A DNA stretch of 64,000 nucleotides from an uncultured virus (IMG/VR IMGVR_UViG_3300036715_001702) (IMGVR_UViG_3300036715_001702), one strand, 5' to 3'; shown: positions 12,021-61,882, counted from the stretch's first letter. Numbers and translations are program-made. Notes: a model not told the origin generated them from the sequence alone.

Positions 12021-12220
12021 TTGAACTTTTTTACATTTTTACATTATAAGTTAATAACGAAATGAAAAACTTAAAAAAACATATTAAATGTGAATGCACC
12101 GGTAGCGGTAGTTGCAGGAGAGGGATCCTAGCTTGGGATTTATATTTATATGTATTAAAGAAAAATTAAAATATACTAATATAGATGTCCTAGCAAAAAA
12201 GCTAGGGTATTTTTATTTTA
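12021..12220 (+). promoter_or_regulatory. Attenuator 1: promoter, leader ORF, antiterminator and terminator before the Glu/Asp/Gly/Pro tRNAs
   Basis: TTGAAC-N18-TATAAG; ATG AAA AAC at 12062; ttgggatttatatt can pair with aatatagatgtcctag; terminator gtcctagc-aaaaaa-gctagggt plus T-rich tail. Confidence 0.7.
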
Positions 12221-12242
12221 TTTGAATTTGTAAAAAATATAT

Positions 12243-12326
12243 GTTGCATTAGTCTAGCGGTCCAGGACATCAACCTTTCACGTTGATGAACGAAAGTTCT
12301 CGAGTGTTCGAATCCCTCATGCAATA
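12243..12326 (+). tRNA. tRNA-Glu(TTC) with long variable arm
   Basis: Acceptor GTTGCAT/ATGCAAT; tcaac-ctTTCac-gttga; extra gaac-gaaa-gttc arm; TTCGAAT. Confidence 0.88.
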
Positions 12327-12332
12327 CAAAAA

Positions 12333-12404
12333 GGTTTATTAGTGAAATGGTTATCATCCTACGTCGTCAACGTAGAGTTTACAGTTCAATTCTGTGATAA
12401 ACTA
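12333..12404 (+). tRNA. tRNA-Asp(GTC), atypical C33 and A73
   Basis: GGTTTAT/ATAAACT; ctacg-tcGTCaa-cgtag; TTCAATT. Confidence 0.8.
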
Positions 12405-12417
12405 CAAAAATAAAAAT

Positions 12418-12490
12418 GCGTAAATATATCAGTGGTAGATAGCTTTACTTCCAATAAAGAGGCTGGTGAGTTCGATCCTCCCTTTGCGCT
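12418..12490 (+). tRNA. tRNA-Gly(TCC)
   Basis: GCGTAAA/TTTGCGC, U73; cttta-ctTCCaa-taaag. Confidence 0.85.
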
Positions 12491-12500
12491 TTTTAAATAT

Positions 12501-12586
12501 CAGCAGGTCGCGTAGTTAGGCCTATCGCACTGGATTTGGGATCCAGTTCAGAAATGAAATCTTAGGTTTGAATCCTAATCTGCTGA
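12501..12586 (+). tRNA. tRNA-Pro(TGG) with long variable arm
   Basis: CAGCAGG/TCTGCTG; ctgga-ttTGGga-tccag; ttca-gaaa-tgaa arm. Confidence 0.88.
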
Positions 12587-12611
12587 CAATAAAATAAATA
12601 TTAAAACTGTT

Positions 12612-13082
12612 ATGGAAACTAATATAAGAATAAAAAACAGAACTAAAGAAATCGGAACCAGACATCGTAGAAAACTGAAAAAATATTCAGATAACTTCAA
12701 TCTGATGTTTGAATTCTTTTTAAAATCTTACAGATCAGGATTATTGACATTCAGTGGAAGCTATATCGATGTGAGATATGATAGCAATGGCACTTGTGCG
12801 AAAGAAACTTTTAGGCTTTACGAGGATGGATTTTTCAAGAATAAATCTATTATACATACATCGCAACCAAATATAGTTTATGCAGTACTAAATGGTAAAA
12901 AATCTTGGGGTCTTTGGCTGCAGAACTGGACTGATGGTATATCTGAATGTAACTTTACAAAAGATGAAATTCTTGATCAGTTCAAAGATATAAAAATTCC
13001 AGAATCTTTATTGAAGAACTTTGATGATATTATCTTGAAGAAGAAATTGATTAGATATGAAAGAGATTTTCCAAATTTTTAA
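12612..13082 (+). CDS. Hypothetical protein
   Basis: 156 aa ORF after tRNA cluster 1. Confidence 0.7.
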   Translation: METNIRIKNRTKEIGTRHRRKLKKYSDNFNLMFEFFLKSYRSGLLTFSGSYIDVRYDSNGTCAKETFRLYEDGFFKNKSIIHTSQPNIVYAVLNGKKSWGLWLQNWTDGISECNFTKDEILDQFKDIKIPESLLKNFDDIILKKKLIRYERDFPNF

Positions 13083-13133
13083 CATTTACACTTTAAAAAT
13101 TAAACTCTTTTTATTTTTTTTTATATAATTGAT

Positions 13134-13430
13134 ATGGAAAAAATAAATATTTTAAAAGAATCAGACTTATTGGTAAACCATAGATCAGATGAAAAATCCA
13201 GACAATATGGTCCCTTCTCAGAAGGCATGCGTAGAGCTGCTAAGATCCTCTCTGGTATGAGAGGTAAAGAATTTACAGAAGATGATATGTTTGCAGCAAT
13301 GATTGCATTAAAACTAAGCAGAGAATCTTATACTCATAAGACTGATAACCTATTAGATTGTGTTGCATATCTGGGAGCTTGGAACAATTCTATAGATGAA
13401 AGAACACCTGACATTAATACTACAGAATAA
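13134..13430 (+). CDS. DUF6378-like phage protein
   Basis: RQYGPF...MIALKLSRE...DNLLDCVAY pattern. Confidence 0.6.
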   Translation: MEKINILKESDLLVNHRSDEKSRQYGPFSEGMRRAAKILSGMRGKEFTEDDMFAAMIALKLSRESYTHKTDNLLDCVAYLGAWNNSIDERTPDINTTE

Positions 13431-13586
13431 AAAATAATTAAGTGAAGCACTTAAAAATTTGAATGTATACAAATGTCTACTTATTTTAAATCATGGACTT
13501 TTTTCCAAATCACATGTGTTATTTTTTGTGTAGTAAAAAATAATAAAATTCATAAATTTACAATTTTGAGTAAAATTAAAATAATA

Positions 13587-13760
13587 TTGAACTTTTTAAT
13601 ATATTTGCAGTATAAATTAGTAATGAAAAACATTTTTACATATCAACAGCAATATCAACAGCAACCTAAAGTTGAATGCTATTGTATTGTGTAAAAATAA
13701 ATAAAAATATTTAAACAAAATAAAAAAGCTCAACTCAAAAAGTTGAGCTTTTTTATTTTT
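13587..13760 (+). promoter_or_regulatory. Attenuator 2 before tRNA-Tyr, tRNA-Gln and tyrS
   Basis: TTGAAC-N18-TATAAA; agttgaatgct in the leader can pair with agctcaact; terminator aaaaaagctcaact-caaaa-agttgagctttttt. Confidence 0.85.
13623..13694 (+). CDS. Tyr/Gln-rich leader peptide MKNIFTYQQQYQQQPKVECYCIV
   Basis: tat caa cag caa x2; ATG 6 nt after the -10 box. Confidence 0.85.
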   Translation: MKNIFTYQQQYQQQPKVECYCIV

Positions 13761-13764
13761 GTAT

Positions 13765-13847
13765 GGATACGTAGGTAAGTGGTTAAAACAAGAGCTCTGT
13801 AAAAGCTCCGCCTGCGGGCTTCGAAAGTTCAAATCTTTCCGTATCCT
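13765..13847 (+). tRNA. tRNA-Tyr(GTA), U73
   Basis: GGATACG/CGTATCC; gagct-ctGTAaa-agctc; long variable arm. Confidence 0.9.
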
Positions 13848-13861
13848 CAAAATATAAACTC

Positions 13862-13932
13862 TGGTAGATCGTCTAAGGGGAGGACTCAAATTTTTGACAT
13901 TTGCAATGAAGGTCCGATTCCTTCTCTACCAA
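13862..13932 (+). tRNA. tRNA-Gln(TTG)
   Basis: TGGTAGA/TCTACCA; caaat-ttTTGac-atttg. Confidence 0.88.
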
Positions 13933-13950
13933 CAATTTAAAACAAATAAC

Positions 13951-15355
13951 ATGAAAACTGAAACATTTCCACCGAATTCAATAATACCCAAAGAAAAATC
14001 AAGGGTTAAATTTGGCATAGATCCAACATCAGATAAATTACATCTAGGACATCTTGTTCCATTGAGAATGGTTAAAACACTAAAAGAGATGGGCCATACT
14101 ATCGATATAGTTCTCGGCAGTTTTACAGCGATGCTTGGTGATCCTTCTGGCAAAGACAAAATGAGACCTATGCTTTCAGATACAGAAACAAAAGCTAATG
14201 CTGAATCTATCCTGAGCCAAGTCAAGATGATACTTGGCTCAGACATATATAGTAATGTAAAATATTGAAAAATTATCCAACATTTTTTACTTATTGCTTC
14301 ATAGACACCAGTAACCTAGCATCTCCACGATCTTTTAGAACAGTCTCTTGTTCAGGTTCGGGTTTACTCATCCCTACCGAATATTTCATATTCGCACTTT
14401 TCAGTGCGAAAAATGTATTTTTATTACATTTGTTTTACGTATGAATTTGTAAATTTCATACAACCAACATGTCAATGAACATTAATCAATCAATTAATCA
14501 ATTAATAATAGAGTATATATTATACAAAAATGTTTTAGTTTAAATATTTTTATATAAATTGATATAAAATCAGTTACTTAATATTATACATTTCAATCAT
14601 ACATGGTTCGAGAAGATGTCTATTCCTCAGATGATGGACATAGTTTCTAAATTTAATGTTAATCATCTGTTGTCAAGAGATTCGTTTCAAAACAGAATCA
14701 AAAATAATAACAGTATCGGAATCCATGAACTTCTTGTTCCGATCTTACAAGGTTTGGATTCTGTAGAACTTAAATCAGACATCGAAATCGGAGGAACTGA
14801 TCAACTTTTCAATTTTATGATCAGTAGAGAGATGCAAGAAAAATATGGAATGAAACCAGAGATATGCTTGTTTGCTCCTATTATCAATGGTTTGGATGGC
14901 AGAAAGATGTCTAAATCTTTGAACAATTGTATATTCATCAATGACTCTCCAGAAGATGTTTTCGGTAAAACAATGTCCATCTCTGATGAAACAATGCATG
15001 AATGGGTAGAAGTATTTCTGAAGGATCCAAAAAATTCACATGCTTTTGAACTCAAGAAAGAGTTAGCGTTCTCTATCACAGAAGAAATATGGGGAATATA
15101 TTAGCAATCAAAGCTAAAAATCATTTCAGTTCTGTGATTTCATCTAAAAATACACCAGATGATATTCAAGAGATAGAATTCTCTGACATTATATCCATAA
15201 TTTGTTTGATCAGGAAATCATCAAAGACCGCTGCTAGAAATTTATTGATTTCTAATGCTGTTAAAGTGAATGGAAATGTTGCAACTTTGGAAACTATATT
15301 GAAATCTGGAGATGTGATCAAAGTTGGTAAACTTGATCATGTTAAAATGATATAG
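13951..15355 (+). pseudogene. tyrS: Tyrosyl-tRNA synthetase interrupted by insertion element A and a later frameshift
   Basis: GIDPTSDKLHLGH, GDPSGK, GGTDQLFN, KMSKS, C-terminal S4-like domain; insertion at 14252-14584; frame change near 15100. Confidence 0.92.
14252..14584 (-). mobile_element. 333-bp non-autonomous IS element copy A
   Basis: Near-identical reverse complement of 62533-62865; TATA on both flanks; splits tyrS. Confidence 0.92.
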
Positions 15356-15401
15356 AGTGTATTATCATTTTTTTTTATGATTTTTGATTATATTTGTAAC
15401 C

Positions 15402-16184
15402 ATGCAAGAAAAGTTCTGTCTTATAGAAATTTTGAAATCTGATGAACCATCTCAGTTGCTGGAGATTGCTGACACTATTGGTATATTGAATGAACATCTT
15501 CCTGAACTTATTGCTTTGAAAGGTATTGAAACAATTGATGGCATTTCGCATAAGGATAATTATATACATACTTTACAAGTGTTGAAAAATACATGCATTG
15601 TTTCAAGAGATCCTTATTTGAGATTGGTTGCATTGTTGCATGATATAGGCAAAGCTCCTACTAAGAAATTCGAAAATGGCAAATGGTCATTTACAAATCA
15701 CGAGCTTGTTGGAACTTATATGTTGAAAAAGATATTTGAAAGAAATGATATAAATTTCATACACTTCGACTATGTTGAAAAAATCATTCAATATCACGGC
15801 ATAATCAAAGAACTTACAAAACCTGAAGTGACGGATTCGGCAATCAGAAGAATGTGTACAGATCTTGGATATATGTACAATGATGCTATTTTGTTCTGTA
15901 AATGTGATTCGACTACTTCTAAACCTTGGAAGAAAGAGTTACATATGAATGATCTTTCAAAATTGAAAGACAGAGCCGAAGCAATATTGAAAAATGATAA
16001 AGAGAAAGCATACCGGCCGCCTATAGATGCTCATGATATAATGGCTATGTTTCCAGATAAACCTGCAGGAAAGTGGCTCACTGAGGCCAAAGACATTGTT
16101 GTATTTGCTATAAAGAATGGTATCATAAATGAAAACAAAGAAGAAGCACTAAATTTTATTAAAAATTTCATAAACGATAAATAA
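15402..16184 (+). CDS. HD-domain protein resembling the C-terminal part of CCA-adding enzymes
   Basis: HTLQVL, ALLHDIGK, TDSAIRR; no N-terminal NTase head. Confidence 0.8.
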   Translation: MQEKFCLIEILKSDEPSQLLEIADTIGILNEHLPELIALKGIETIDGISHKDNYIHTLQVLKNTCIVSRDPYLRLVALLHDIGKAPTKKFENGKWSFTNHELVGTYMLKKIFERNDINFIHFDYVEKIIQYHGIIKELTKPEVTDSAIRRMCTDLGYMYNDAILFCKCDSTTSKPWKKELHMNDLSKLKDRAEAILKNDKEKAYRPPIDAHDIMAMFPDKPAGKWLTEAKDIVVFAIKNGIINENKEEALNFIKNFINDK

Positions 16185-16596
16185 TCATGGATTTAAAAAA
16201 TTATAAAAATGAAAAAGATTAGAAAAAAATAAGTCAAAAGAAGATTTTTATAGAATGGTAAATCTACTATTGGAAAGAATTAAATCTAATCAATCTATTT
16301 CTGATAATGGAATAATAGATGGTTTGATCATTGGGTTTTTATACACGACAAGTTTTGTAATAGATTTATACCTTGATAAAGAAATGGGTCATATATTAGA
16401 TGGAACTCTACAAAAAATTAGAGCAGATAACTATATGGGTTTCAAATAATGAAGATGAACTATGTTGTGTAGTATTAATAAAGAAGCCTAAAAAAATAAT
16501 ATAAAATGGAAAAAGAAACATCAAGAGAAAAAGCTTGTTAAAAAATCAAACACTCTGAGAAATAAACTATCTGAGATAAGTTCTCAAATTAAAAAA

Positions 16597-16947
16597 TTGG
16601 ATATTGATGATAAGATTAAAAATCTATTGCAGTATGTAGGAAAATGTTTCAAGATATGTGAAAAAACAGAATTTATCAATTGTTGTCATTTATATGAAAT
16701 CAGTAAATCTGAAAATGGAAATATTGATCTTCATGGTATTAATGTTTTTCATTATGATAATGAATCATATTTTGGAATCCGACACGATGATATGTTTCTA
16801 TATGATGTTTTAAATAAAAATTCTACTGTTTCATGGTTGAATGATAACTCAGAAGATTCTGAGTTTATAGAGATAACCAAAGAGGAATTTGATAAACATC
16901 TAGATTTGGTAACAAATTTGATAAAAAGTAAAAATGACATTCGTTAA
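16597..16947 (+). CDS. Hypothetical protein, probably 5'-frameshifted (upstream ATG ~16506)
   Basis: ORF track; broken upstream frame. Confidence 0.45.
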   Translation: MDIDDKIKNLLQYVGKCFKICEKTEFINCCHLYEISKSENGNIDLHGINVFHYDNESYFGIRHDDMFLYDVLNKNSTVSWLNDNSEDSEFIEITKEEFDKHLDLVTNLIKSKNDIR

Positions 16948-17130
16948 GACAGAACCAAAATTTTATAAATCTGATATTGCTGGAAAAGCATACCTTTATG
17001 ATGAGTATCATTTATTTTGATCCTGTCATTCCTATGCGGTCTAAACAACCATAAATAAAATTAATAATTGATTATCTTTGATATTTTAATCATTTTAAAA
17101 TATATAAATCATAAAATAAAACAACTAAAA

Positions 17131-17430
17131 ATGCAAAATATTACCGATCAAGATTACAAAGAAATTTTAAAAAGTAACGAAAAAGTAGCAATCAAGATCC
17201 ATGCAGCATGGTGCTCTCCTTGCAAAGTTTTAGCTCCTATAGTCGAAGAAATCGCTTCAGAAATGACAGAAACATCTTTTTACAGCTGTGATGCAGATCA
17301 GAACAAAGAAATGTTAGCAGAATATGGAATTAGAAATATTCCAGCTATATTGTTCTTCAAAAATGGAGAACTTGTTGATAAGCTTATAGGCAATCAGACT
17401 AAAGCTAAGATTTTAGAAAAACTTAACTAA
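17131..17430 (+). CDS. trxA: Thioredoxin
   Basis: WCSPC active site, IRNIP. Confidence 0.95.
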   Translation: MQNITDQDYKEILKSNEKVAIKIHAAWCSPCKVLAPIVEEIASEMTETSFYSCDADQNKEMLAEYGIRNIPAILFFKNGELVDKLIGNQTKAKILEKLN

Positions 17431-17432
17431 TA

Positions 17433-17468
17433 AAAAAGCCTCAACTAAATATTGAGGCTTTTTATTTT
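17433..17468. terminator. Bidirectional intrinsic terminator
   Basis: aaaaagcctcaa-ctaaata-ttgaggcttttt between convergent genes. Confidence 0.8.
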
Positions 17469-17683
17469 TAATCTCCAGAATCTCCACCATAATCGCTGGT
17501 CGCATCTTTGTCATTGTTTAAATCGATATCAATGATAGAACTTTGTTGATTTATCATATAAGGTGCCATGTTTCCTAATCTGTAATTATTAGTGTTCTGA
17601 TCAGACTTCTTTTTTGAGGATTTTTTCTTTTTCTTATCAGATTTTTTCTTCTCTAATAAGAAATCTTTGAAATTTATGATCAT
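17468..17683 (-). CDS. Small Lys-rich protein with capsid-targeting-like N-terminus
   Basis: MIINFKDFLLE then a poly-Lys stretch. Confidence 0.65.
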   Translation of the reverse strand: MIINFKDFLLEKKKSDKKKKKSSKKKSDQNTNNYRLGNMAPYMINQQSSIIDIDLNNDKDATSDYGGDSGD

Positions 17684-17693
17684 ACGGTTTTAT

Positions 17694-17891
17694 TTATTTT
17701 ATTGAATGTGTTGTAACTATTTGGAATTTAAAACCATCCTCTTCTACAGATTTGATCTCTATGAAGGATTTATCCTTGAATTCGCTGATATCTAATACTG
17801 GCATAGCATTGCTAGAAAATGAATTTCCAGCAACTGTTTCAATTATCTCCTCTTTGGAGTCTTCTATTATTCTGATTTCTGCAGCCATCAA
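17694..17891 (-). CDS. Hypothetical protein
   Basis: 65 aa ORF. Confidence 0.55.
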   Translation of the reverse strand: MMAAEIRIIEDSKEEIIETVAGNSFSSNAMPVLDISEFKDKSFIEIKSVEEDGFKFQIVTTHSIK

Positions 17892-17914
17892 TATTTATAT
17901 ATATTGATGTAAAT

Positions 17915-18229
17915 ATGTCAAGTTCGGTCCAACAAATGTATAATCTCAAGTATCTGGTCATGATGCTTCACAGTAACTATGTCTCTGCATACTATAATGC
18001 ATATGATCTTATACTTCATTTTGATGGATCAGTATATGGTTTAAATGATCTGAACGATGGTGACGAAATAGAAAAACTATTCGAAGCCAAAGACCTCAGA
18101 GTAACTTTTATAGATAAGATATTGAGAACAGAACTAGAAATTGTACAATCTGAACTTCAGTATTATAAGTTGTATGAAACTAATATCTATATCAGAACTT
18201 CGAGAGGATCTATTAATCTTAACTATTAA
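17915..18229 (+). CDS. Hypothetical protein
   Basis: 104 aa ORF. Confidence 0.6.
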   Translation: MSSSVQQMYNLKYLVMMLHSNYVSAYYNAYDLILHFDGSVYGLNDLNDGDEIEKLFEAKDLRVTFIDKILRTELEIVQSELQYYKLYETNIYIRTSRGSINLNY

Positions 18230-18246
18230 TTTATTATTTTTATAAA

Positions 18247-18512: not shown

Positions 18513-18695
18513 ATGAAAAACATTTTAACAATCATCGCCTCTTTAGCATTATTCATCGCTTGTACATCAACTACACCAGTGCAAGAAGCAGAAACATTAA
18601 CAACTGACACTACAGCTGTTACAACTACAACAATCTCAACGGATTCTATATCAGTTGACACAACAGCTGTTGTTACAACAACATTAACAAAATAA
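18513..18695 (+). CDS. Small Thr-rich lipoprotein
   Basis: Signal peptide with FIAC lipobox; DTTAVTTT repeated; followed by gccacca/tggtggc terminator. Confidence 0.75.
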   Translation: MKNILTIIASLALFIACTSTTPVQEAETLTTDTTAVTTTTISTDSISVDTTAVVTTTLTK

Positions 18696-28315: not shown

Positions 28316-28397
28316 ATACTATATATTAAATTAAATTGAACTTTTTATATAATTCTAAGTAATATATAGAACTAACAACAACGATCTTTGACTTATT

Positions 28398-28793
28398 GGG
28401 GGTATACGTATCGACAGCGAAACCTGGATTATTAGGTCGCATGCATAGCTAGTTGGAAGCTATTAAAAATCCTAACAAAACAATAATTGGCAATATTACC
28501 AACGAAATCGGCAGCAAGGCTGATATTCTTCATGTTCTTAAAAACAACATGTTGACTGCTAAAACTCAAGAAGCAGAACTTGAGTTAGCAGCATAGGATC
28601 TGAACAATAGTAGGATTCTCCTGTAAATAATGCAAATGTCTTATCTTTTGGTCCATCAAATGGCGAAAGGAAAATAGATGACAACTGGCTATGAAAGTTG
28701 TAGGATTTGCCAAGTTATAAAACTTGGATAAAGCATGTAAATATCAATAAAACTTTTTGTCTGAACGCGGCTTCAAGGCCGCTACCTCCACCA
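28398..28793 (+). ncRNA. ssrA: tmRNA with ~35-aa tag
   Basis: GGGGGTA/TACCTCC-A-CCA with G3.U70; TCGAC in D region; T-arm; tag ORF 28489-28596 ends ELAA*. Confidence 0.92.
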
Positions 28794-40200: not shown

Positions 40201-43077
40201 TTAAGAAGAGCAAGCAATGCATCCATCAGGGCCTGAATCTAATGAGCAAACTATACCTTCATCAATAGTTTTTTCAGCATTGGTCAAATCAACACCCAAT
40301 GCTTTGTTAGCTGATGAATCTTTCTGAGTTCTTAGATAATACATTCCAGTTTTTAAACCTTTCTCCCATGCATAGAACAAAGCAGAAGTCAATTTGGCAG
40401 CATTAACAGAAGCAAAGAATATATTCATCGATTGTGTCTGACAGACAAAAGGCCCACGATCTGCTGCTAGATCTATCAGTGCTTTCTGCTTGATCTCCCA
40501 TATAGTTTTATAAACCTCTTTTAATTCTGTTGGTATCTCTGGAACATTTTGTACAGATCCTTCTCCTAAAATTAATTTATTTTTAAGATCGTTATTCCAT
40601 AATCCAAGATCTACTAGATCATTCACTAGATGCTTGTTCACAACTGTGAATTCACCAGATAAAGTATTTCTCTTGTAGATATTAGCAGTGAATGCTTCGA
40701 AACATTCATTATTTCCTAATATTTGAGAAGTGTTATGTGTAACTAAACCGTTATGGGTTAGAAATTCATGTACTTCTTGAACTTCAATATCCCATGTTGG
40801 TTTAAGTTCAGTTGATTTTTCAATTTTTGCTATTTTCATACCGATTCCGTCAATCGTTACAATATCATCATTTTCTACTAAATCTGAAGCACAGACCCAA
40901 ATTTGGTCATTGTTTATATTAATTAGAAATTTATGATTTTCTGTACATTCAAAGATAGATCCATCTTCCATATTAATCTTAATAGTTTCTTTTAAACCAT
41001 TATAGAATATTTTATCAGATGTTTTGATACCAAATCTTGTTTGAACTTGTATAGGTTCTTTGAAAAATAACCATTGTTGATCATTAGTTTTTTCTATTTC
41101 TTGCCAATTGATATCATTTTCAGTCATAATATCTTGATAAGATTTAGCACCATTTTCAGTTAATATCAAAGTATCACTTAAAAAACAACTAGCTGTTGGC
41201 ATTAATGCAACCAGTAGCGAATTTCTAACTCCGTGTTTCTTGATATTTTTTTTCAATGTTATAAAATCCCATCTTCCAGAAAGATCTTGTTCTGTCATTC
41301 CCCACATATCGTATTGTAAAATACCTTTCGATATAGGACTTCCTTCGTATGAATTATACGGACCGTGTTTTTTAGCCAATTCGTTTGAAGCTGTCAATGC
41401 TGCAAAGTAGATAGTTTCTGAAATTTCTTTATTCAATTTCTTAGCTTCTTCTGATTCGAAAGCAATTCCCATAATTGCAAATACATCAGCTAAACCTTGA
41501 ACTCCTAAACCTACAGGACGATGGTTCTCATTAGAGAACTTAGTCTCAGGAACTGGATAGAAATTATTATCGATCACTTTGTTCAAGTTGATAGTTGCTT
41601 GATGTGCAACTTTGAATAATAGTTCGTGGTCGAATTCAGCTTTCTTTTTCTTCTTATCTTTTCCTTTAGTGATTGTTAAAAACATAGGAAGTGCTAATGA
41701 AGCCAGGTTGCAAACCGCAATCTCGTTGATATTTTTGCCAGGATGGTTTTCTTTTTGCCATTTTGTAATTCCCGTAGATTGTAATATTTCCGAGCATAAA
41801 TTACTACTTCTGATTTGGCCAATATTGGATTGATTGGATTTTATATTCGCGGCATCTTTGTAAATAATATAAGGAGTTCCTCCTTCGATTTGAGCTTCGA
41901 TTATTTTTGCCCATAAATCTCTAGCTTGAATTCTCTTACCCTTTCCTTCATTTTCATATCTGATAAAATGATCTTCAAATTCTTTTCCGTATGTTTCATT
42001 CAATTCAGGAACTTCATCTGGAGAAAATAATGTCCAGTGAGATTCTTCTTTGACACGTTGCATGAATAAATCTGGAACCATCAAAGCCAAGAATAAATCT
42101 CTAGCTCTCATTTCTTCTTTTCCTTGATTTTTTCTCAACTCTAAAAATTCGTAAATGTCTGAATGCCAAGGCTCTAACCAGGCAGAAATGCTCCCTTTTC
42201 TGCGGCCTCCACCTTGATCGATTGCTCTTGCAATCTCATTCATGATCTTTAAGAAAGGAATTAATCCATTCGAATGTCCATTTGTCCCTTTGATATATGC
42301 TCCTTTACCTCTGATATTATTCATATTGATACCGATACCACCAGCATTTTTTGAAATTTGTGCAATATCGCCAAAAGATTTAAACATTCCTTCAATTGAA
42401 TCCCCTTCATTCTGAATCAAAAAGCAAGAACTCATCTGCGGACGTTTTGTTCCTGCATTGAATAATGTGGGTGTAGCGTGAGTAAAGAATTTCTGTGACA
42501 TCAAATCGTAAGTCTTGATTGCTTCGTTAACGTCATCTTTCCAAATTCCACATGAAACACGCATCAACATCTGTTGTGGTGTTTCTGCGATCACTTTATC
42601 AATTTTTAATAAGTAAGATCTTTCTAATGTTTTGAAACCGAAATAATCGTAAGAAAAATCTCGGTCGTGTATGATGGCTTCTTCTAATTTTTTGCTGTTC
42701 TTCTTGATAAATTCGTATACATCATCAGCTATCATTCCAGCTTTTTCTCCTGTTTTAGGATTTACATAATTGTATAAATTGGTTGTAACTTCCAAGAAGC
42801 TCTTTGGTGTGTTCTTATGCAGATTTGATAATGCAATCCTAGCAGCAAGAATTGCGTAGTCTGGATGCGTTCCTGTCATCGCAGCAGCTGTTTCTGATGC
42901 TAAACTATCAAGCTCTGATGTTTTAACACCATCATATAATCCTTGAATAACTTTTGCAGCTACCGAAATAGGATCCACAAAATCTGAATTTAATCCATAA
43001 GTCTGTTTTTTGATTCTAGCTACAATCTTGTCCAATTTTACTGTCTCTTTTCGACCGTCTCTTTTTAGTACTTCCAT
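40201..43077 (-). CDS. nrdA: Class Ia ribonucleotide reductase alpha subunit with intein
   Basis: ATP cone VLKRDG, SSCF, SNLCSEI, VCNLAS, MYYLR, C-terminal CIAC. Confidence 0.97.
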   Translation of the reverse strand: MEVLKRDGRKETVKLDKIVARIKKQTYGLNSDFVDPISVAAKVIQGLYDGVKTSELDSLASETAAAMTGTHPDYAILAARIALSNLHKNTPKSFLEVTTNLYNYVNPKTGEKAGMIADDVYEFIKKNSKKLEEAIIHDRDFSYDYFGFKTLERSYLLKIDKVIAETPQQMLMRVSCGIWKDDVNEAIKTYDLMSQKFFTHATPTLFNAGTKRPQMSSCFLIQNEGDSIEGMFKSFGDIAQISKNAGGIGINMNNIRGKGAYIKGTNGHSNGLIPFLKIMNEIARAIDQGGGRRKGSISAWLEPWHSDIYEFLELRKNQGKEEMRARDLFLALMVPDLFMQRVKEESHWTLFSPDEVPELNETYGKEFEDHFIRYENEGKGKRIQARDLWAKIIEAQIEGGTPYIIYKDAANIKSNQSNIGQIRSSNLCSEILQSTGITKWQKENHPGKNINEIAVCNLASLALPMFLTITKGKDKKKKKAEFDHELLFKVAHQATINLNKVIDNNFYPVPETKFSNENHRPVGLGVQGLADVFAIMGIAFESEEAKKLNKEISETIYFAALTASNELAKKHGPYNSYEGSPISKGILQYDMWGMTEQDLSGRWDFITLKKNIKKHGVRNSLLVALMPTASCFLSDTLILTENGAKSYQDIMTENDINWQEIEKTNDQQWLFFKEPIQVQTRFGIKTSDKIFYNGLKETIKINMEDGSIFECTENHKFLININNDQIWVCASDLVENDDIVTIDGIGMKIAKIEKSTELKPTWDIEVQEVHEFLTHNGLVTHNTSQILGNNECFEAFTANIYKRNTLSGEFTVVNKHLVNDLVDLGLWNNDLKNKLILGEGSVQNVPEIPTELKEVYKTIWEIKQKALIDLAADRGPFVCQTQSMNIFFASVNAAKLTSALFYAWEKGLKTGMYYLRTQKDSSANKALGVDLTNAEKTIDEGIVCSLDSGPDGCIACSS
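40732..41187 (-). other. 152-aa mini-intein in NrdA
   Basis: MPTAS|CFLSDT...LVTHN|TSQILG; no LAGLIDADG domain. Confidence 0.92.
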
Positions 43078-55091: not shown

Positions 55092-55666
55092 AATTCTATC
55101 AATTTTCCTAGTCTTGGCTCTGCTAATCCTGTTCCATAAATATAAGCATTATCTTTAAAAGTTCGAATTCCATATGATCCAAGTTCGCATTCTTTATCTT
55201 TTACCATTCCAACTATATCAATTGAACCATCATAGTTCTTGACAATTTTACAATTTATGTAATTTTTGAAAAAATTGAAGGCATCAGTAACCATACTGTG
55301 CAATATAACACCATTCACATCTTTAGTTTCGATGAGTTCTAATTTCATGAAATATTTTCCATGTAGAGAATCTTCGATATCGTCTCTGAAGCAAGGTGTG
55401 ATTGCACAATATCTGCCTTTAGGAAGGTCTTCATCCTCAATTTTTTGCAAGAAAGATTGTTCTCCAGAAGCGACTAACACTTTGTCTTCAACAAAGAAAT
55501 CTTTATGATGCTCAGGTTTTGTATGAACGCTGATATCTGGATAAACGGTCCAATCTACATCAGTGTATGTGTAACCCAAGTTTTCGTAATGATCTAGTGC
55601 TTCTATAAATCTTCTATAATTGATTATGTTTTCCATATTTAAATTAGTTTCTGTATCCGTTTTCAA
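55082..55666 (-). CDS. Minimal class II aaRS-like catalytic-core protein
   Basis: VASGEQSF, TPCFRD (motif 2), ELGSYG, YGTGLAEPR (motif 3). Confidence 0.75.
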   Translation of the reverse strand: MKTDTETNLNMENIINYRRFIEALDHYENLGYTYTDVDWTVYPDISVHTKPEHHKDFFVEDKVLVASGEQSFLQKIEDEDLPKGRYCAITPCFRDDIEDSLHGKYFMKLELIETKDVNGVILHSMVTDAFNFFKNYINCKIVKNYDGSIDIVGMVKDKECELGSYGIRTFKDNAYIYGTGLAEPRLGKLIELCK

Positions 55667-56714
55667 ATGCTCTTTTTGTTATATTACTAAATTTTTCAAG
55701 ATCTTCCATTTTCAATCCTTGATTTTCAGCAAAGGCTCTAATGGCACCATATAAATCTGATAGTTCTACCATCATCATAATCTTGCAATCTTGTTCCATA
55801 GCATCTTTTAGTTCTTCTAATTCTTCTTCTATTTTCGAAATATCTCCAAGTGTTCCTTTTTTGATATCTTTTAAATGATAACCTTTTTCTATTATATCAG
55901 GGAATATTTTTCCATCATTCCTTATAGAAAAAAGAATTTTGTCTGATGTATTTTCTGGATATGCTACTTTGCCATGTTCTGATGAAAATAACAATTCGTC
56001 ATTTGAATTTTTTATTGCATAATCGTATATGCAAGATTTAATCGGTGTATAGAATAAATCTTTCATCATTTCTTCTTGAGTATAGAATTTTTCTTTCTGA
56101 TAAGGAACTTCTCTATCATTATATTTATCTATGTTGTGATTTTTGTATTTCAAAACTTTGTGAGCAATAGGATAAACATGATATCTATGATAAGTTTTAT
56201 GAATCCCAGTTTCAGACATTTCTATTATCACATTATCAGTATTATCATAAGCTACTAACATTCCTGTTACAGATTCGTCGTCTCTTATTTTTACTAATGA
56301 ATTGATATCAATATTCTTATCATAGACTTCGTAGTAATATGTATCGCTGTATGAATACAATTTTTCTTTAATCTTTTTCTCTACATCCTTTGTGTTGTAG
56401 ATCATATCTAATGAACTATCGTCTATAGTATCCAATCCTATCAACAGGCTTTTTTGTTTTTCGTCTAGCTGTATGACTTTGTAGGGTTCACATAAAGGCC
56501 AAAGCTCATTCACTGTATATAAATAATCGTTTATCACATATGTTGTATTTATTGTTGATTCATAAACATGATCTATGTTTTCTACATTCATGTTTCCTGA
56601 TGCATTTTTTATCACTACTAATGAACCTGTTTTTAAGTTTGGATATCCTTCATATATTTCAGATAAGAACAAGATCTCGTTAAGATAGTTTCTATGTATG
56701 TGATATTTTGCCAT
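55644..56714 (-). CDS. Hypothetical protein with C-terminal MazG-like helical domain
   Basis: KIEEELEEL...ELSDLYGA. Confidence 0.6.
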   Translation of the reverse strand: MAKYHIHRNYLNEILFLSEIYEGYPNLKTGSLVVIKNASGNMNVENIDHVYESTINTTYVINDYLYTVNELWPLCEPYKVIQLDEKQKSLLIGLDTIDDSSLDMIYNTKDVEKKIKEKLYSYSDTYYYEVYDKNIDINSLVKIRDDESVTGMLVAYDNTDNVIIEMSETGIHKTYHRYHVYPIAHKVLKYKNHNIDKYNDREVPYQKEKFYTQEEMMKDLFYTPIKSCIYDYAIKNSNDELLFSSEHGKVAYPENTSDKILFSIRNDGKIFPDIIEKGYHLKDIKKGTLGDISKIEEELEELKDAMEQDCKIMMMVELSDLYGAIRAFAENQGLKMEDLEKFSNITKRAFENGYRN

Positions 56715-56772
56715 GTTTTATAAGTTTGATATTTTTATTACAAAATGACACAAAGTTTTAAATATATACACT

Positions 56773-57063
56773 ATGATTTTAAATTTTAAACAATTCTTAA
56801 ACGAGGACGCTTATGCTAATGCTGCAAATGTTACAGGTATGGGAGCAGTCGTAACATCGCAACCTTCTGCAATACCTGGAGATGCTTCTGGGGCCACAAC
56901 TGGTTCTGGTGATATAGGATTCCCTTTTGCTATGTATACAAAAATGCCACAATTCGGATATGGAAAATACGAACCCAAGATCAAAAAACCAAAGAAGGAT
57001 AAGAAATCTAAATCTAAACTTGCAAATTTGTACAGTTTTGATGAGTTTTCTATTCAAGATTAA
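56773..57063 (+). CDS. Small protein with capsid-targeting-like N-terminus
   Basis: MILNFKQFLNE; AATATATAC upstream. Confidence 0.7.
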   Translation: MILNFKQFLNEDAYANAANVTGMGAVVTSQPSAIPGDASGATTGSGDIGFPFAMYTKMPQFGYGKYEPKIKKPKKDKKSKSKLANLYSFDEFSIQD

Positions 57064-57096
57064 AAACTTTTATGATCATTTTGTATATTTGTTGTT

Positions 57097-57579
57097 ATGA
57101 CAACATCAAGTAAACTGCTCATACTGGGAAAAGGAGCTGCCGGAAAAGACCATCTTTGCAGACGCTTTGAAAAAAGAGGATTTACCAAATCTATCAGCTA
57201 CACAACAAGGCCCATCAGACTTAATGAAAAAGATGGTATCGATTATCATTTCATATCTGAAGAACAATTCAAATCAATGTCAGATGCTAATGCATGGCAA
57301 GAACAAGATTGTTTCAGAGGTTGGTATTACGGTACAACAAAAGATTCTTTTGAAGATAATAATCTTTTCATAAAAACTCCAAGAGTTTTGGCAGCAATGA
57401 AACCTGAAGACCGAGCTCAATGTTTTGTTATTTATTTAAATCCTCCAAAAGACATAATTAGAAAAAGACTAGAATATAGAAATGATGCCGATGATGTAGA
57501 ACGTCGCATAAGAACAGATGAAGAAGCCTTCGCAGATTTCAAAGATTACGATTTAATGATTACAGACCCAAATTTTTAA
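57097..57579 (+). CDS. gmk: Guanylate kinase
   Basis: GKGAAGKD, SYTTRPIR..EKDGIDYHF, YYGT. Confidence 0.9.
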   Translation: MTTSSKLLILGKGAAGKDHLCRRFEKRGFTKSISYTTRPIRLNEKDGIDYHFISEEQFKSMSDANAWQEQDCFRGWYYGTTKDSFEDNNLFIKTPRVLAAMKPEDRAQCFVIYLNPPKDIIRKRLEYRNDADDVERRIRTDEEAFADFKDYDLMITDPNF

Positions 57580-57582
57580 AAT

Positions 57583-58611
57583 ATGAACACAAGTATAGAT
57601 TACTACAGAATTTTAGAGACTAAAAATAATGCAACAGAGACTGAAATAAAAAAAGCTTTCAGAAATCTTTCCAAACAATATCATCCGGATAAAAATCCAG
57701 ATAATAAAGAATTTGAAGAGAAATTTAAAAGTGTAGCTGAAGCATATGCCGTATTAGGAGATAAAACTAAAAAAGCTGACTACGATAAAAAAAGTCATTT
57801 TGGAAACAACTACGATCCTAATTATGGTACTTATCAGAGTTTTGGAAATGGAGGTTTTGATCCATTTGCTCATATGAAACAAGCATATGCCAAAGCTGAA
57901 GAATCTAGACGCAGAGCTTTGGAATTATCCATAGCAATGACAGTTACGATCACATTAGCAGAAGCTTACAATGACGAGACTCTGACAAAAAAATATAAAA
58001 GAAGAGTTCCTTGTGATACTTGCAATGGTTGTGGCTACGATGATAAGAAGGATGTATATGATTGTGAACTATGTAATAACACAGGAAAAGATGCAAAAAC
58101 AGGAAAAAATTGTAAATCGTGTAAAGGCAGTGGAGCTTTAGGTATACATAAATGCGAGACTTGTAAAGGCAGAGGTTTAGTAGAGAAGGAATTTTCATTC
58201 AACATACAAAATCCTAGCAGGTTTATAAATAGCGAAGAACAACAATTTGTGAACCAAGGCCATGGTAATTATTCTGATGATATGTCAGAGCTTGGTCACC
58301 TCATCATCAATGTCAAGATTGAAGAAAATAATAAATATTCATTCCAGAACGGAGACATATACTATACCTTAGATCTGCATTATCAGGATGTTATAGATGG
58401 CATAAAGGTTCAACATCAACATTTGGATGGAAAGGTATATGCAGTACAAATTCCTGAAAAATGCAAAGATGGAAATGTATTAAAATTGGCTGGCAAAGGT
58501 ATAACATATCACAATCCTTACAATGGGCAGAAATACAGAGGAAATCTGTTATTAACAGTCAATGTGATTATTGATTATGATAGAGTACAATCTAAAGTTC
58601 AACAAAACTAA
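57583..58611 (+). CDS. dnaJ: DnaJ chaperone
   Basis: J domain with HPD; four CxxCxxxG repeats. Confidence 0.95.
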
Positions 58612-58635
58612 TTAACTTTTTTAAATAAAATATAC

Positions 58636-59412
58636 ATGAGCACTAAAAATTCAATCACAGATGTAAACTGTGTTTTTACAAAAGATGGACTGACTACATT
58701 TCTTGTCAACTTGCAAGATCTTGCAAAGATCAATAAAGATCATACCGTAAAGGTGATCTTTGATCATGATAAAACTTTAATGTATACGTTAAATGGTGCT
58801 ACAATATTCAAGACTTGTCAATTAGATAACAAAGATCTTTTTTCATCATTTCCAGATGAATTCAAAGAACAGATATCAATGATGATTTTAGATGCTGATA
58901 AGTTTGTAAAACGTATGGCATTCTATAGAGATTCTGAAGAAGTCAAAGCTACATTAGGTTACAGAAAGAATTATTCTGGACAAAACTATGTATATTATTT
59001 CAAAGCCAATGACAAGAAATTGAAAATGAGCATAGTGTGCGGAGAACAAAATAAATTGGATGTGATCACACGAACTCAGATACAGACGAAAGTAGATGCT
59101 CCTTCAGATTTCATATTTAATATAGATATAGAAAAGTTACAAAAAATCAAAAAATTGAGTGCATTATATCCAGATGATACGACTTTAACAATAAGGATAA
59201 AAAACAACAAGTTATTTTTTGAAGAAGAAGATAAATGGTCGATGCATGTTGATGATGTAGAAAGTGAGAATGCTTCATATAGATTTACTAAGAAATATAT
59301 CAATTCTATAAACAATAGCAATTCTGTAAAGATAGAAATGAAAGGTTTGTTTATGACAATTTCAAATGAAACAGTATTATTGATGATAGGATTGGAAGTT
59401 AGTGATTTCTAA
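58636..59412 (+). CDS. Possible sliding clamp (gp45/PCNA-like)
   Basis: 258 aa with a two-fold repeated alpha/beta pattern; replication context; no hard motif. Confidence 0.45.
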   Translation: MSTKNSITDVNCVFTKDGLTTFLVNLQDLAKINKDHTVKVIFDHDKTLMYTLNGATIFKTCQLDNKDLFSSFPDEFKEQISMMILDADKFVKRMAFYRDSEEVKATLGYRKNYSGQNYVYYFKANDKKLKMSIVCGEQNKLDVITRTQIQTKVDAPSDFIFNIDIEKLQKIKKLSALYPDDTTLTIRIKNNKLFFEEEDKWSMHVDDVESENASYRFTKKYINSINNSNSVKIEMKGLFMTISNETVLLMIGLEVSDF

Positions 59413-59426
59413 TAAATTTTAAAAAT

Positions 59427-60569
59427 ATGTATACAAAAGAAGAATTAGAGTACCTTGATTACAAGGAATCTTATTATTTGGGAAATCCAAAAATTTCAGA
59501 TCCTGAATTTGATAAATTTGAAGATCTACTAAGAAAGAAAGGATCCAGAGTTGTTGATATAGTAGGATATACGATCAAGAATAAAAAAGATGTATATGAT
59601 CATCCTTCAGATATGTTATCACTTGAAAAATTGCAAGTGAATGATGAAGAAAACATACCATTGGATGAACTTGAAAAATGGATGAACCAGATGTCAGGTA
59701 GTATCATCGAGATAAGCCCTAAATACGATGGCAATGCAATTAATTGTATTTATCAGGATGGTGTACTGATCAAAGCTTTAACAAGAGGTAGTAAAACTCA
59801 AGGGTTCGAAAGGATTAACAAATTGAAACACTTGGTTCCTAATATAATTCCATTGAAAGGAACTGTACAAATCAGAGGTGAAATAGTTATCACTGATAAA
59901 GAGTACCAAAAATACAGAGATCCTGAAAAAATATCAAATGCTCGTAATTTTGTTGCTGGAATTTTAAACAGAGATGAAGTTGATTTTGATATTATTAACG
60001 ATCTAGTATTTGTTGCATATTCATGTCTGTTGAATAATGGATACATAGATAATACTATGCAACAATTGGAAAATTTTGGTTTCAACGCTATACATAAACC
60101 TTTCCTTAGAAAATTTTCTAATATTTCAGATTTTCCAGCATTGTATAAAGAATTCAAACAATATAGAAAGAATATCAGTGAATTTCTGTTAGATGGTATA
60201 GTTCTCAAATTTCCTGAAAGTATTCGTCCTATTTTATCAGAGACTGATCATCATCCAAGGTGGGGTTTGGCAATCAAGTTTGAAACTGACATAGTAGAGA
60301 CTGAAATTTTAGATATTATCTGGAACGTTTCAACAACTGGCGAATTGTCTCCTGTTGCTATATTGAAACCTGTAGAACTTTTAGGAACCATAGTTCAGAA
60401 AGCATCTCTTTATAATTTAGGATCTATCATAACAATGAGATCTTTTCCTGGAGCTACAGTAAAGATTAGAAAATCTGGAGAAATAATACCACAAATATTA
60501 AGTGTTATAATTCCTTCACCAAATGAAGATCAATATTTAAAACAATATGAAGAAAGATGCAGAGTATAG
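59427..60569 (+). CDS. ligA: Minimal NAD-dependent DNA ligase (adenylation plus OB domains)
   Basis: ISDPEFD, MLSLEK, PKYDG, RGE, DGIVLK, AIKF, KSGEIIPQ; ends before Zn/HhH/BRCT. Confidence 0.9.
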   Translation: MYTKEELEYLDYKESYYLGNPKISDPEFDKFEDLLRKKGSRVVDIVGYTIKNKKDVYDHPSDMLSLEKLQVNDEENIPLDELEKWMNQMSGSIIEISPKYDGNAINCIYQDGVLIKALTRGSKTQGFERINKLKHLVPNIIPLKGTVQIRGEIVITDKEYQKYRDPEKISNARNFVAGILNRDEVDFDIINDLVFVAYSCLLNNGYIDNTMQQLENFGFNAIHKPFLRKFSNISDFPALYKEFKQYRKNISEFLLDGIVLKFPESIRPILSETDHHPRWGLAIKFETDIVETEILDIIWNVSTTGELSPVAILKPVELLGTIVQKASLYNLGSIITMRSFPGATVKIRKSGEIIPQILSVIIPSPNEDQYLKQYEERCRV

Positions 60570-60823
60570 AAGATATTAAAAAATCGGCATTGTTTTATTT
60601 GTTAGACTATAAAGATAAAACTTTTATAGCGATACACGAAACCAATATTGAGCAAACTCAGCAGATTGGATTTACGATAGCGTGGAATAAAAATAAAAAA
60701 GAATTTGATTATTCATATGGCCCAACATTCATGATGAATGAATATGTAGATCGTTGCATAGCGAACAAAAGATTTGATATGACAAATTCTTATGAAGAAG
60801 CATTGAAACATATCAAAAAATAA
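60557..60823 (+). CDS. Hypothetical protein
   Basis: 88 aa ORF. Confidence 0.55.
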   Translation: MQSIEDIKKSALFYLLDYKDKTFIAIHETNIEQTQQIGFTIAWNKNKKEFDYSYGPTFMMNEYVDRCIANKRFDMTNSYEEALKHIKK

Positions 60824-60907
60824 TATTTTACTCTAAAACTTTTAAAATAAATTTTCATATTACATATCTAAATATTAAATTAGCAATAAATAAAACAACA
60901 AACAAAT

Positions 60908-61132
60908 ATGGCAACTTCATCAACTAAAAAAGCAGCTCCTAAAAAAGCTGCAGCGAAAAAGACTGTCGCAGCGAAAGCTCCAGCAAAAAAAGCAACAACT
61001 AAAGCTGCACCAGCTAAAAAAGCTGCACCAGCTAAAACTACAACAGCTAAAGTTGCACCAGCAAAATCTGCTGCTAAGAAAGCTGTAGTGAAGAAATCAG
61101 CTCCTAAAAAAGAAGCTGCTCGTCCTCAGTAG
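60908..61132 (+). CDS. Histone H1-like Lys/Ala/Pro-rich protein
   Basis: AAPAKK repeats; palindromic terminator at ~61160-61190. Confidence 0.8.
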   Translation: MATSSTKKAAPKKAAAKKTVAAKAPAKKATTKAAPAKKAAPAKTTTAKVAPAKSAAKKAVVKKSAPKKEAARPQ

Positions 61133-61213
61133 TTATAATAAAAATAGTTAAAATAGATAAAAAACTCTAAACATATGTTTAGAGTTTTTTTTGATAAAAT
61201 ATTTTTTATTCAA

Positions 61214-61390
61214 TTGAACTTTTGTATATTTGTAAAGTATAATATAGTAATGAAAAACAATTCAACGATATTGACCTTATGTATGATGCTGATTCTGAAG
61301 ATTGGTACTGGGCTATATATTTGTTAAATGTTAGATAAACATATTTTAATAATAAAAGCTCAGCTCGTAAGGTTGAGTTTTTTTATTTTT
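61214..61390 (+). promoter_or_regulatory. Attenuator 3 before the Leu/Leu/Met/Ile/Cys/Thr tRNAs and leuS
   Basis: TTGAAC-N18-TATAAT; ctgggct in the leader can pair with agctcag; terminator agctcagct-cgtaa-ggttgagtt plus T run. Confidence 0.85.
61250..61327 (+). CDS. Leader peptide MKNNSTILTLCMMLILKIGTGLYIC
   Basis: 11 consecutive T/I/L/C/M codons; ATG 6 nt after the -10 box. Confidence 0.85.
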   Translation: MKNNSTILTLCMMLILKIGTGLYIC

Positions 61391-61394
61391 ATTT

Positions 61395-61468
61395 GCCTCG
61401 TTAGTAGAGTTGGTTCATACTTCAGATTTAGAATCTGAAGATCGCTGGGTCGGAACCGGCACGAGGTA
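61395..61468 (+). tRNA. tRNA-Leu(TAG), short variable loop, atypical T-loop
   Basis: GCCTCGT/ACGAGGT; tcaga-ttTAGaa-tctga; T-loop GTCGGAA. Confidence 0.82.
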
Positions 61469-61475
61469 CAAAAAT

Positions 61476-61548
61476 AGTGCATTGATGCAGTTGGTTGACA
61501 TATTGGACTTAAAATCCAAGTACATCGGATCGTTCCAGATATGCACTA
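61476..61548 (+). tRNA. tRNA-Leu(TAA), short variable loop, atypical T-loop
   Basis: AGTGCAT/ATGCACT; ttgga-ctTAAaa-tccaa; T-loop ATCGTTC. Confidence 0.78.
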
Positions 61549-61560
61549 CAAAATATAAAT

Positions 61561-61632
61561 TGCCATGTAGCTCAGTGATAGAGCAATTCCCTCATAAGGA
61601 ATAGGTCTCGAGTTTAATCCTCGACATGGCGA
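61561..61632 (+). tRNA. tRNA(CAT): elongator Met or Ile2
   Basis: TGCCATG/CATGGCG; attcc-ctCATaa-ggaat. Confidence 0.85.
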
Positions 61633-61642
61633 CAACTAATAT

Positions 61643-61715
61643 AGTCTTATATGTCAGTGGTTAGACGGTCAAACTGATACTTTGAAGGTCGTGTGTTCGA
61701 ATCACACTAAGACTA
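61643..61715 (+). tRNA. tRNA-Ile(GAT)
   Basis: AGTCTTA/TAAGACT; tcaaa-ctGATac-tttga; TTCGAAT. Confidence 0.9.
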
Positions 61716-61726
61716 CTTTTAAAAAT

Positions 61727-61798
61727 GCTCATATGGCCGAGTGACTAGGTCACGATCTGCAAAATCGTTGTACGTTGGTTTGATCCCAACTATGAGCT
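61727..61798 (+). tRNA. tRNA-Cys(GCA)
   Basis: GCTCATA/TATGAGC, U73; acgat-ctGCAaa-atcgt. Confidence 0.88.
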
Positions 61799-61810
61799 CA
61801 AAATAAAAAT

Positions 61811-61882
61811 GCCGATATAGTTCAGTGTTAGAATGTCACATTTGTAATGTGAATGTCCTGGGTTAGATTCCTAGTATCGGCT
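61811..61882 (+). tRNA. tRNA-Thr(TGT)
   Basis: GCCGATA/TATCGGC; tcaca-ttTGTaa-tgtga. Confidence 0.88.

Follow-up and report, generated by a model that had tools for sequence, protein, structure and literature searches.

What could lead a phage to place a short open reading frame (ORF) and an intrinsic terminator in front of each of its transfer RNA (tRNA) clusters? The question is raised by a stretch of 64,000 nucleotides (nt) from an uncultured virus (IMG/VR IMGVR_UViG_3300036715_001702), hereafter the window, in which ARAGORN and Rfam find 12 tRNAs in three clusters, all on the + strand. The original prediction described one layout for the three clusters and every element of it was located: in all three units a promoter box is followed by a leader ORF beginning ATG-AAA-AAC, a segment complementary to the 5' arm of a terminator, the intrinsic terminator itself and then the tRNAs. 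We propose, with a probability of about 0.8, that each cluster forms an operon whose transcription is controlled by ribosome-mediated (leader-peptide) attenuation, the phage probably making a given set of tRNAs only when ribosomes decode the corresponding codons slowly.

The leader of unit 1 is an ORF of 35 codons with a TAA stop, MKNLKKHIKCECTGSGSCRRGILAWDLYLYVLKKN (12062..12169; like all the features of the units, on the + strand), the sole ATG ORF before its terminator passing the selection rule described below, and it precedes array 1 (12243..12587; Glu(TTC), Asp(GTC), Gly(TCC), Pro(TGG)). Unit 2 has a leader of 23 codons, MKNIFTYQQQYQQQPKVECYCIV (13623..13694; TAA stop), before array 2 (13765..13933; Tyr(GTA), Gln(TTG)); and unit 3 one of 25 codons, MKNNSTILTLCMMLILKIGTGLYIC (61250..61327; TAA stop), before array 3 (61395..61884; Leu(TAG), Leu(TAA), Met/CAT, Ile(GAT), Cys(GCA), Thr(TGT)). 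The codons of each leader had been predicted to match the tRNAs behind it, which stood for units 2 and 3 and did not for unit 1 (see below). Tyr/Gln codons make up 9 of the 22 codons in the unit 2 leader (1.7 expected; binomial p=1.6e-5), and all nine can be read by the anticodons GTA and TTG; the unit 3 leader has 16 Leu/Met/Ile/Cys/Thr codons out of 24 (6.1 expected; p=2.8e-5) and contains all five amino acids of its array. Among the possible pairings of leaders with arrays in the window, the true one ranks best of 6.

Relatives were gathered with a 156-amino-acid ORF situated between clusters 1 and 2 (alignment A1), and the 94 sources include the whole of LR756502.1, a stretch of 40 kilobases (kb) of LR756501.1, 11 IMG/VR loci and 80 metagenome contigs. 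The rule used to select leaders took no account of which tRNA followed: it asked for a T-tract hairpin of -7 kcal/mol or lower, an ARAGORN tRNA no more than 130 nt downstream, and an ATG ORF of 15-45 codons ending 5-50 nt upstream of the hairpin, the longest being taken. The 94 sources yielded 822 ARAGORN tRNAs and 80 sites with a terminator before a tRNA, 63 of them with an ORF; these comprise 59 unique leaders from 44 sources, 17-42 codons in length (median 29). One leader that passes the rule (L171:6485) resembles an ordinary ORF end (0/23 matches) and was retained in all counts. The 17 sites without an ORF were inspected: ten are hairpins within or between tRNA-like sequences, two are cut by contig ends, one lies inside the leader of another unit, one is the end of a long ORF, and two represent a single leader of 46 codons, above the 45-codon limit (AASWAPSYEPSSAYE, before Tyr Pro Ser Trp Glu Glu Ala); at the last (L206) inspection found no ORF. 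ARAGORN overlooks many odd tRNA-like genes in these sequences and Rfam recovers more, the arrays used here being incomplete.

The permutation of leaders against arrays in relatives, put forward in the original prediction as the check on codon concordance, gave a clear positive. The excess of matches over proteome background was 133.1 for 23 unique leaders, compared to 3.0 +/- 13.4 with arrays permuted (0/20000), and 141.9 with one representative for each of 29 leader clusters, compared to 0.9 +/- 12.8 (0/100000); within LR756502.1 alone, the true pairing of leaders with arrays is the best of 720. Array amino acids were found in their own leader in 192 of 196 cases (130 +/- 6 after permutation), the Pro of window unit 1 being one of the four absent, and 44 of the 59 leaders reach p<0.05 individually. 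The match also has a position: from a fraction of 0.05 at codons 2-3 it rises to 0.51-0.73 at codons 8-17 and drops to 0.08-0.24 over the third-last to ninth-last codons, with 0.32 at the last codon, against a background of 0.17. Individual leaders illustrate the pattern: MTTSFQQQQQQQINRTD, with the run QQQQQQQ, stands ahead of four tRNA-Gln; a leader with ..PQPQHQPQ.. precedes Pro Pro Pro His Gln Gln His Gln; one with ..FEFDFFAAEADF.. precedes Phe Glu Asp Ala Ala Glu; and one with ..TPAPAVAFRRGTGTGTGTCVPAGCG.. precedes Arg, Thr, Val, Ala, Gly and Pro tRNAs.

These results bear on the idea that the units are a general translation-coupled gate sensing global ribosome activity or speed, with the codon content of the leader as a by-product. 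Erm-type and other non-specific leaders work in this way, window unit 1 lacks codon enrichment despite its complete architecture, some leaders of relatives sample many amino acids (six in L156), and agreement at the codon level barely exceeds expectation. Leader content nevertheless follows the leader's own array (0/100000 permutations; 192/196 amino acids; best of 720), and QQQQQQQ before four tRNA-Gln or PQPQHQPQ before Pro/His/Gln are hard to call by-products; we consider a general gate unlikely. Much further down the scale, and in our opinion scarcely credible, is chance, or an artefact of AT-rich sequence combined with post hoc choice of ORFs: small ORFs are common in AT-rich DNA and the count of the promoter pattern is weak alone, but the ORFs were picked by a rule ignoring tRNA identity, and the permutation, frame and position controls reject it at the family level. 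Chance cannot account for the comparative support of the attenuation reading.

The frame control was the following: 631 of 1682 codons (37.5%) match the array in the leader frame, compared to 242/1623 and 225/1623 (14-15%) out of frame; the off-frames of the leaders hold 136 and 171 stops, and the leader frame is always open. The same control weighs on a ribosome-independent RNA switch of the T-box type, in which the triplets would pair directly with the anticodons of uncharged tRNA. Such a switch would suit the regulated genes, tRNAs and synthetases being the classic clientele of T-boxes; however, the signal sits in a single open frame running from an ATG to a stop some 27 nt before the terminator, with 136 and 171 stops in the other two, and neither a T-box nor another riboswitch was matched even at E<=1. 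In the window no T-box reaches the Rfam gathering score and none appears at E<=1 around the three units. A sub-threshold hit to the Rfam family Thr_leader (RF00506; 29.2 versus 55 bits) covers only the unit 2 terminator (13707-13757), and the units belong to no Rfam leader family. Direct pairing with anticodons thus appears very improbable.

Under attenuation, the terminator has to be the gate to the tRNAs. Intrinsic terminators with a T-tract are found at 12178..12217 in unit 1 (core stem 12183-12212; -13.8 kcal/mol), 13719..13757 in unit 2 (-19.1 kcal/mol) and 61348..61387 in unit 3 (core 61354-61382; -12.9 kcal/mol), and the first tRNA begins 26, 8 and 8 nt past the terminator end, respectively. 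As the terminators end 8-26 nt upstream of the first tRNA, the tRNAs are reachable only by read-through, and the lack of space suggests that a separate promoter behind the terminator is absent. An antiterminator strand, able to form a duplex with the 5' arm of the terminator, lies at 12130..12152 in unit 1 (-11.8 kcal/mol), 13669..13689 in unit 2 (-8.2 kcal/mol) and 61307..61327 in unit 3 (core TGGGCT; -12.0 kcal/mol). Across the family, leaders pair with the 5' arm of their own terminator at -10.2 kcal/mol, compared to -7.4 kcal/mol for mismatched units (0/5000 permutations), and reversing or shuffling the own arm weakens the pairing (p=7.5e-4 and p=3e-10, respectively). The centre of the antiterminator strand is located a median of 22 nt upstream of the stop codon, the gap between stop and hairpin has a median of 27 nt (interquartile range 25-30), and that between hairpin and first tRNA a median of 18 nt.

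Since equilibrium scans did not discriminate the two states in unit 2, and did so only partly in units 1 and 3, we used folds of the RNA as it would exist during a stall, with a ribosome placed in the sensor codons, the RNA extending from behind it to the loop of the terminator, and the 3' arm not yet made. In these folds the 5' arm pairs with the upstream strand in unit 1 (ribosome at codon 14; -18.1 kcal/mol), unit 2 (ribosome at codon 9; -11.1 kcal/mol) and unit 3 (ribosome in the sensor codons; -13.5 kcal/mol). With the ribosome at the stop codon, the upstream strand is covered in all three window units and the terminator is the sole structure able to form.

The covariation check proposed for the hairpins was likewise positive, with compensatory changes detected in the unit 3 family on antiterminator and terminator alike. 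Unit 3 belongs to a Cys/Val/Leu leader family, nine members of which were aligned (A2). The antiterminator helix, whose core is TGGGCT in the ACT GGG CTA codons of unit 3 against AGCTCA, shows 91.4% pairing and 4 pairs in which both partners changed (1/500 shuffles). For the terminator the values are 96.3% and 5 such pairs (0/500 shuffles), and a one-column shift of the partner makes both signals collapse. The covariation comes from these nine sequences, three of which (W3, L162, L207) supply most of the double changes.

Conservation of the peptides themselves invites a different explanation, namely that the ORFs encode functional small peptides (for example hydrophobic or Cys-containing), that the terminator ends their transcript and that the tRNAs are expressed independently. 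The N-termini are conserved as M-K/R-N/T-x-x-N-I and some C-termini as G-Y-x-C, and the unit 3 leader is hydrophobic. Nonetheless, orthologous leaders retain the composition of their mid-part with the order shuffled (FEFDFFAAEADF, FDIAFFAAEEDY, FDFAFEFAAEAD), the conservation at the C-terminus falls on codons that form the RNA strand pairing and covarying with the terminator, and the gap between terminator and tRNA (median 18 nt; 8 nt in units 2 and 3) is too small for a promoter. Functional peptides are therefore a poor explanation, only marginally less improbable than the anticodon-pairing switch. Attenuation, in turn, finds support in the concordance, the pairing with the own arm and the covariation, and read-through would then respond to stalling.

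Several observations weigh against this interpretation. Only 394 of the 822 tRNAs are in arrays behind a detected unit, and such a unit immediately precedes only 55 of the 247 clusters. Among leaders with the full architecture, window unit 1 departs most clearly from the pattern: Glu/Asp/Gly/Pro codons account for 5 of its 34 codons (7.8 expected; p=0.91), none of them for Pro, and its stop is only 9 nt upstream of the hairpin, where a terminating ribosome might itself disturb the terminator. Equilibrium partition functions give the unit 2 terminator a probability of about 0.99 at every ribosome position; the unit 3 terminator mostly wins as well, and the states of units 1 and 3 are only partly discriminated. 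With the terminator favoured at equilibrium, the antiterminator would have to act kinetically, which is its usual way of acting. The antiterminator strand falls within -30 to -5 of the stop in 42 of the 59 leaders compared to 32/59 for mismatched units, a modest focus. Pairing of region 1 with region 2 (the anti-antiterminator) was not supported in the family (-6.2 versus -5.9; 701/5000), plausible pairings of this kind being seen in the window for units 1 and 2 only (-15.0 and -11.1); this hairpin is typical of the trp type and is not required for the logic of attenuation. Agreement at the codon level, allowing for wobble, shows just a slight excess (516 of 616, 488 expected), and consequently sensing of tRNA species and sensing of amino acids are not separable from these data.

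Two further reservations concern the promoter. The pattern TTGAAC-N18-TATAA has exactly three matches in 64 kb (starting at 12021, 13587 and 61214; 0.99 expected), a count which is weak alone, at least 3 copies being present in 9/100 shuffles. In addition, reading TATAA as a -10 box would put the ATG of units 2 and 3 no more than about 1 nt from the transcript start; either these two leaders would then be translated leaderless, or the promoter assignment is wrong.

The boxes themselves are an exact match to the pattern in unit 1 (12021..12049), where the promoter role is putative, and pattern matches in unit 2 (13587..13615; containing TATATTTG, with the ATG 7 nt past TATAA) and unit 3 (61214..61242), the operon upstream of the latter being ended by a two-way terminator (61159-61190). 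It is the placement of the box upstream of ATGAAAAAC, and not the pattern count, that carries weight: ATGAAAAAC occurs at five sites in the window, three of which start 7-12 nt downstream of the boxes. The 10-mer TTGAACTTTT has four copies in 64 kb, all on the + strand and upstream of stable-RNA genes (1/100 shuffles reach four); three precede the leaders and the fourth (28336-28345) lies 62 nt upstream of the gene for transfer-messenger RNA (tmRNA), which has neither leader ORF nor terminator behind the box. Its presence before a leaderless tmRNA suggests that the box may mark a stable-RNA promoter class of the phage, to which the leader-terminator module would be an addition specific to tRNA operons. 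In the relatives, 47 of the 59 leaders have TAnnTTTG, which we take to be the Bacteroidota -7 element, within 90 nt upstream, compared to 8% of random windows, and these leaders follow A-rich untranslated regions of roughly 40-60 nt; in the window TATAA occupies the position of TAnnTTTG and the ATG comes 7 nt later in units 2 and 3.

Other occurrences of these motifs were noted. The fourth ATGAAAAAC on the + strand opens a 60-codon ORF (18513-18692) upstream of a terminator; this ORF, which has Thr-rich repeats and a signal resembling that of lipoproteins (..LALFIAC..), is unrelated to the tRNA leaders. Short contigs from 3 of 4 DNA runs match only 13586-13632 (the unit 2 promoter and first leader codons) with 8 differences, and perhaps represent the beginnings of additional paralogous leaders in those samples; contigs from the four DNA runs showed no variant letters in the leaders within 11900-14300, and a search for RNA runs containing this interval returned none. 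Scanning IMG/VR with a loose pattern of promoter plus ATGAAAAA returned 120 mostly unrelated loci with a tRNA in only 4, and was dropped.

We envisage attenuation working as follows. The transcript would start at the shared promoter box and its first product would be the 23-35 codon ORF, whose middle (about codons 8-17) is spelled in codons decoded by the downstream tRNAs and whose final codons hold the RNA segment complementary to the 5' arm of the terminator abutting the tRNAs. If the sensor codons are read fast, the ribosome would reach the stop and cover the complementary segment, the terminator would form and no tRNAs would be made. If charged cognate tRNA is short, as might result from the codon demand of the phage, host shut-off, starvation or an anticodon-nuclease defence, the ribosome would stall upstream of the complementary segment; the freed segment would capture the 5' arm ahead of synthesis of the 3' arm, and the polymerase would proceed into the tRNAs, read-through continuing into tyrS in unit 2 and possibly into leuS in unit 3. 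The products would relieve the stall, making of each operon a closed feedback loop for its own codon set. The translation of the leaders, its coupling to transcription, the direction of the switch and its physiological trigger are here proposed from sequence.

The presence of synthetase genes behind two of the clusters, tyrS and leuS, was likewise part of the original prediction, and it holds more firmly for the first than for the second. The gene tyrS (13951..15104, + strand) starts 17 nt past tRNA-Gln, which places it within the Tyr/Gln-gated operon; it is in two pieces, 13951-14268 and 14616-15104, both matching PF00579 and TIGR00234. The split is caused by a 343-nt repeat (14248-14590) which has an inverted, 97% identical copy at 62527-62869, between array 3 and leuS; a further, incomplete copy with 85-92% identity lies at 5034-5271. 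No Rfam family at E<=1 and no intron match was found for the insert in tyrS; the element could be a mobile insert or an unrecognised intron, and tyrS may be broken by it. The gene leuS (63219..64000, + strand) is represented by its N-terminal 260 amino acids, cut by the window end (best family TIGR00396 leuS_bact, 261.7 bits), and begins 1.3 kb behind array 3. No terminator on the + strand was detected between array 3 and leuS, and read-through from the array possibly extends into it.

Among the tRNAs of the window, tRNA-Glu(TTC) (12243-12327, 85 nt) and tRNA-Pro(TGG) (12501-12587, 87 nt) have long, class-II-like variable arms, and long Lys, Glu, Thr, Asn and Gln tRNAs occur in the relatives too. 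Rfam found many tRNA-like sequences in the gaps between the ARAGORN tRNAs of two relatives (L121 and L156), including a tRNA-Sec-like match at L121 4424-4510 (48.2 versus 47 bits); with these Rfam-only sequences, the tRNA arrays of the relatives are larger than counted. A GOLLD RNA (275 bits) lies directly upstream of a tRNA in LR756502.1 (L144 16685-17091).

The window as a whole has a G+C content of 29.8% and includes a ribonucleotide reductase large subunit gene with an intein splicing domain (40201-43077, - strand), genes for a DnaB-like helicase, an NAD-dependent ligase and a weakly Gp23-like protein, and the tmRNA gene (28398-28793). Its only relatives in the phage collection are LR756502.1 (642 kb) and LR756501.1/LR756503.1 (735 kb), huge uncultured phages; for a neighbouring capsid-like protein of 515 amino acids, relatives were sought in IMG/VR and the phage collection and none was found.

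The closest known counterparts are the attenuators of enterobacterial amino-acid operons, trpL, hisL, pheL and leuL, and the multivalent thrL and ilvL/ivbL. The phage units share with them a promoter-proximal short ORF with regulatory codons (a start-to-stop ORF lies between promoter and regulated genes in the 3 window units and for the 59 unique ORFs, and cognate codons are enriched in units 2 and 3 and in the family, not in unit 1), an intrinsic terminator between the leader and the regulated genes, an antiterminator strand pairing the 5' arm that a ribosome at the stop would cover, and multivalent leaders sampling several amino acids. They differ in regulating tRNA genes, whose output would feed back on decoding, and not biosynthetic enzymes; in being carried by a phage, with several units in one genome that each have a codon set of their own; and in having no detectable conserved 1:2 hairpin and no sequence homology to the bacterial leaders. 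The general principle of leader-peptide attenuation is stated in PMC1183508.

Attenuators before synthetase genes are nearer in function. PMC1262725 mentions the E. coli pheM-pheST leader-peptide attenuator and describes predicted classical attenuators upstream of leuS and trpS in Streptomyces, and PMC2965389 a His leader upstream of hisS paralogues in bacilli; neither paper reports tRNA genes controlled in this manner, the term 'tRNA gene' having no occurrence in either. As in these systems, genes of the translation apparatus would be controlled by stalling at cognate codons, with tyrS behind the Tyr-rich leader of unit 2 and leuS behind the Leu-rich leader of unit 3; unlike them, where one protein gene is gated by one amino acid, the phage leaders are multiplexed to a set of tRNAs, which are the main cargo. 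T-box riboswitches of the Firmicutes also sense tRNA status and act by terminator read-through before translation-related genes; however, they bind uncharged tRNA through one specifier codon and without a ribosome, and the signal in the phage units is an open, frame-specific ORF.

Studies of phage tRNAs as supplements to, or replacements for, host tRNAs cut by nucleases (excerpts of PMC10264068, PMC11555353 and PMC12409363) provide a reason for making tRNAs on demand, and concern the function of these tRNAs rather than the control of their synthesis; the words 'attenuat', 'leader', 'terminator' and 'promoter' are absent from PMC10264068. Full-text searches, with subscription journals and bioRxiv supplements outside their scope, returned no published case of leader-peptide attenuation of tRNA genes. 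What is new here is tRNA genes as cargo and a multiplexed sensor for each operon, the logic of leader-peptide attenuation being known.

In textbooks, tRNA genes are under growth-rate or constitutive control, and attenuation belongs to amino-acid operons and a small number of synthetase genes. A combination of both would provide a direct feedback from decoding speed to tRNA supply. The module involved, in which the N-terminus stays constant, the sensor can be exchanged and the switch covaries, is found widely across a clade of very large uncultured phages; it could also supply compact codon-specific sensors for synthetic biology. The question of why phages carry tRNAs is 50 years old, and here the codons of each leader would name the shortage that its tRNA set answers; the link between phage tRNAs and tRNA-targeting defences becomes directly testable. 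Going further, and at what we judge slightly better than even odds, each tRNA operon may be an autonomous closed-loop controller metering the decoding of its own codon set, with its product switching it off, and the many units together a homeostat for each codon family, firing when anticodon nucleases or host shut-off remove tRNAs. If true, this homeostat would be a built-in, self-aiming counter-defence of these phages and a new regulatory class for stable-RNA genes.

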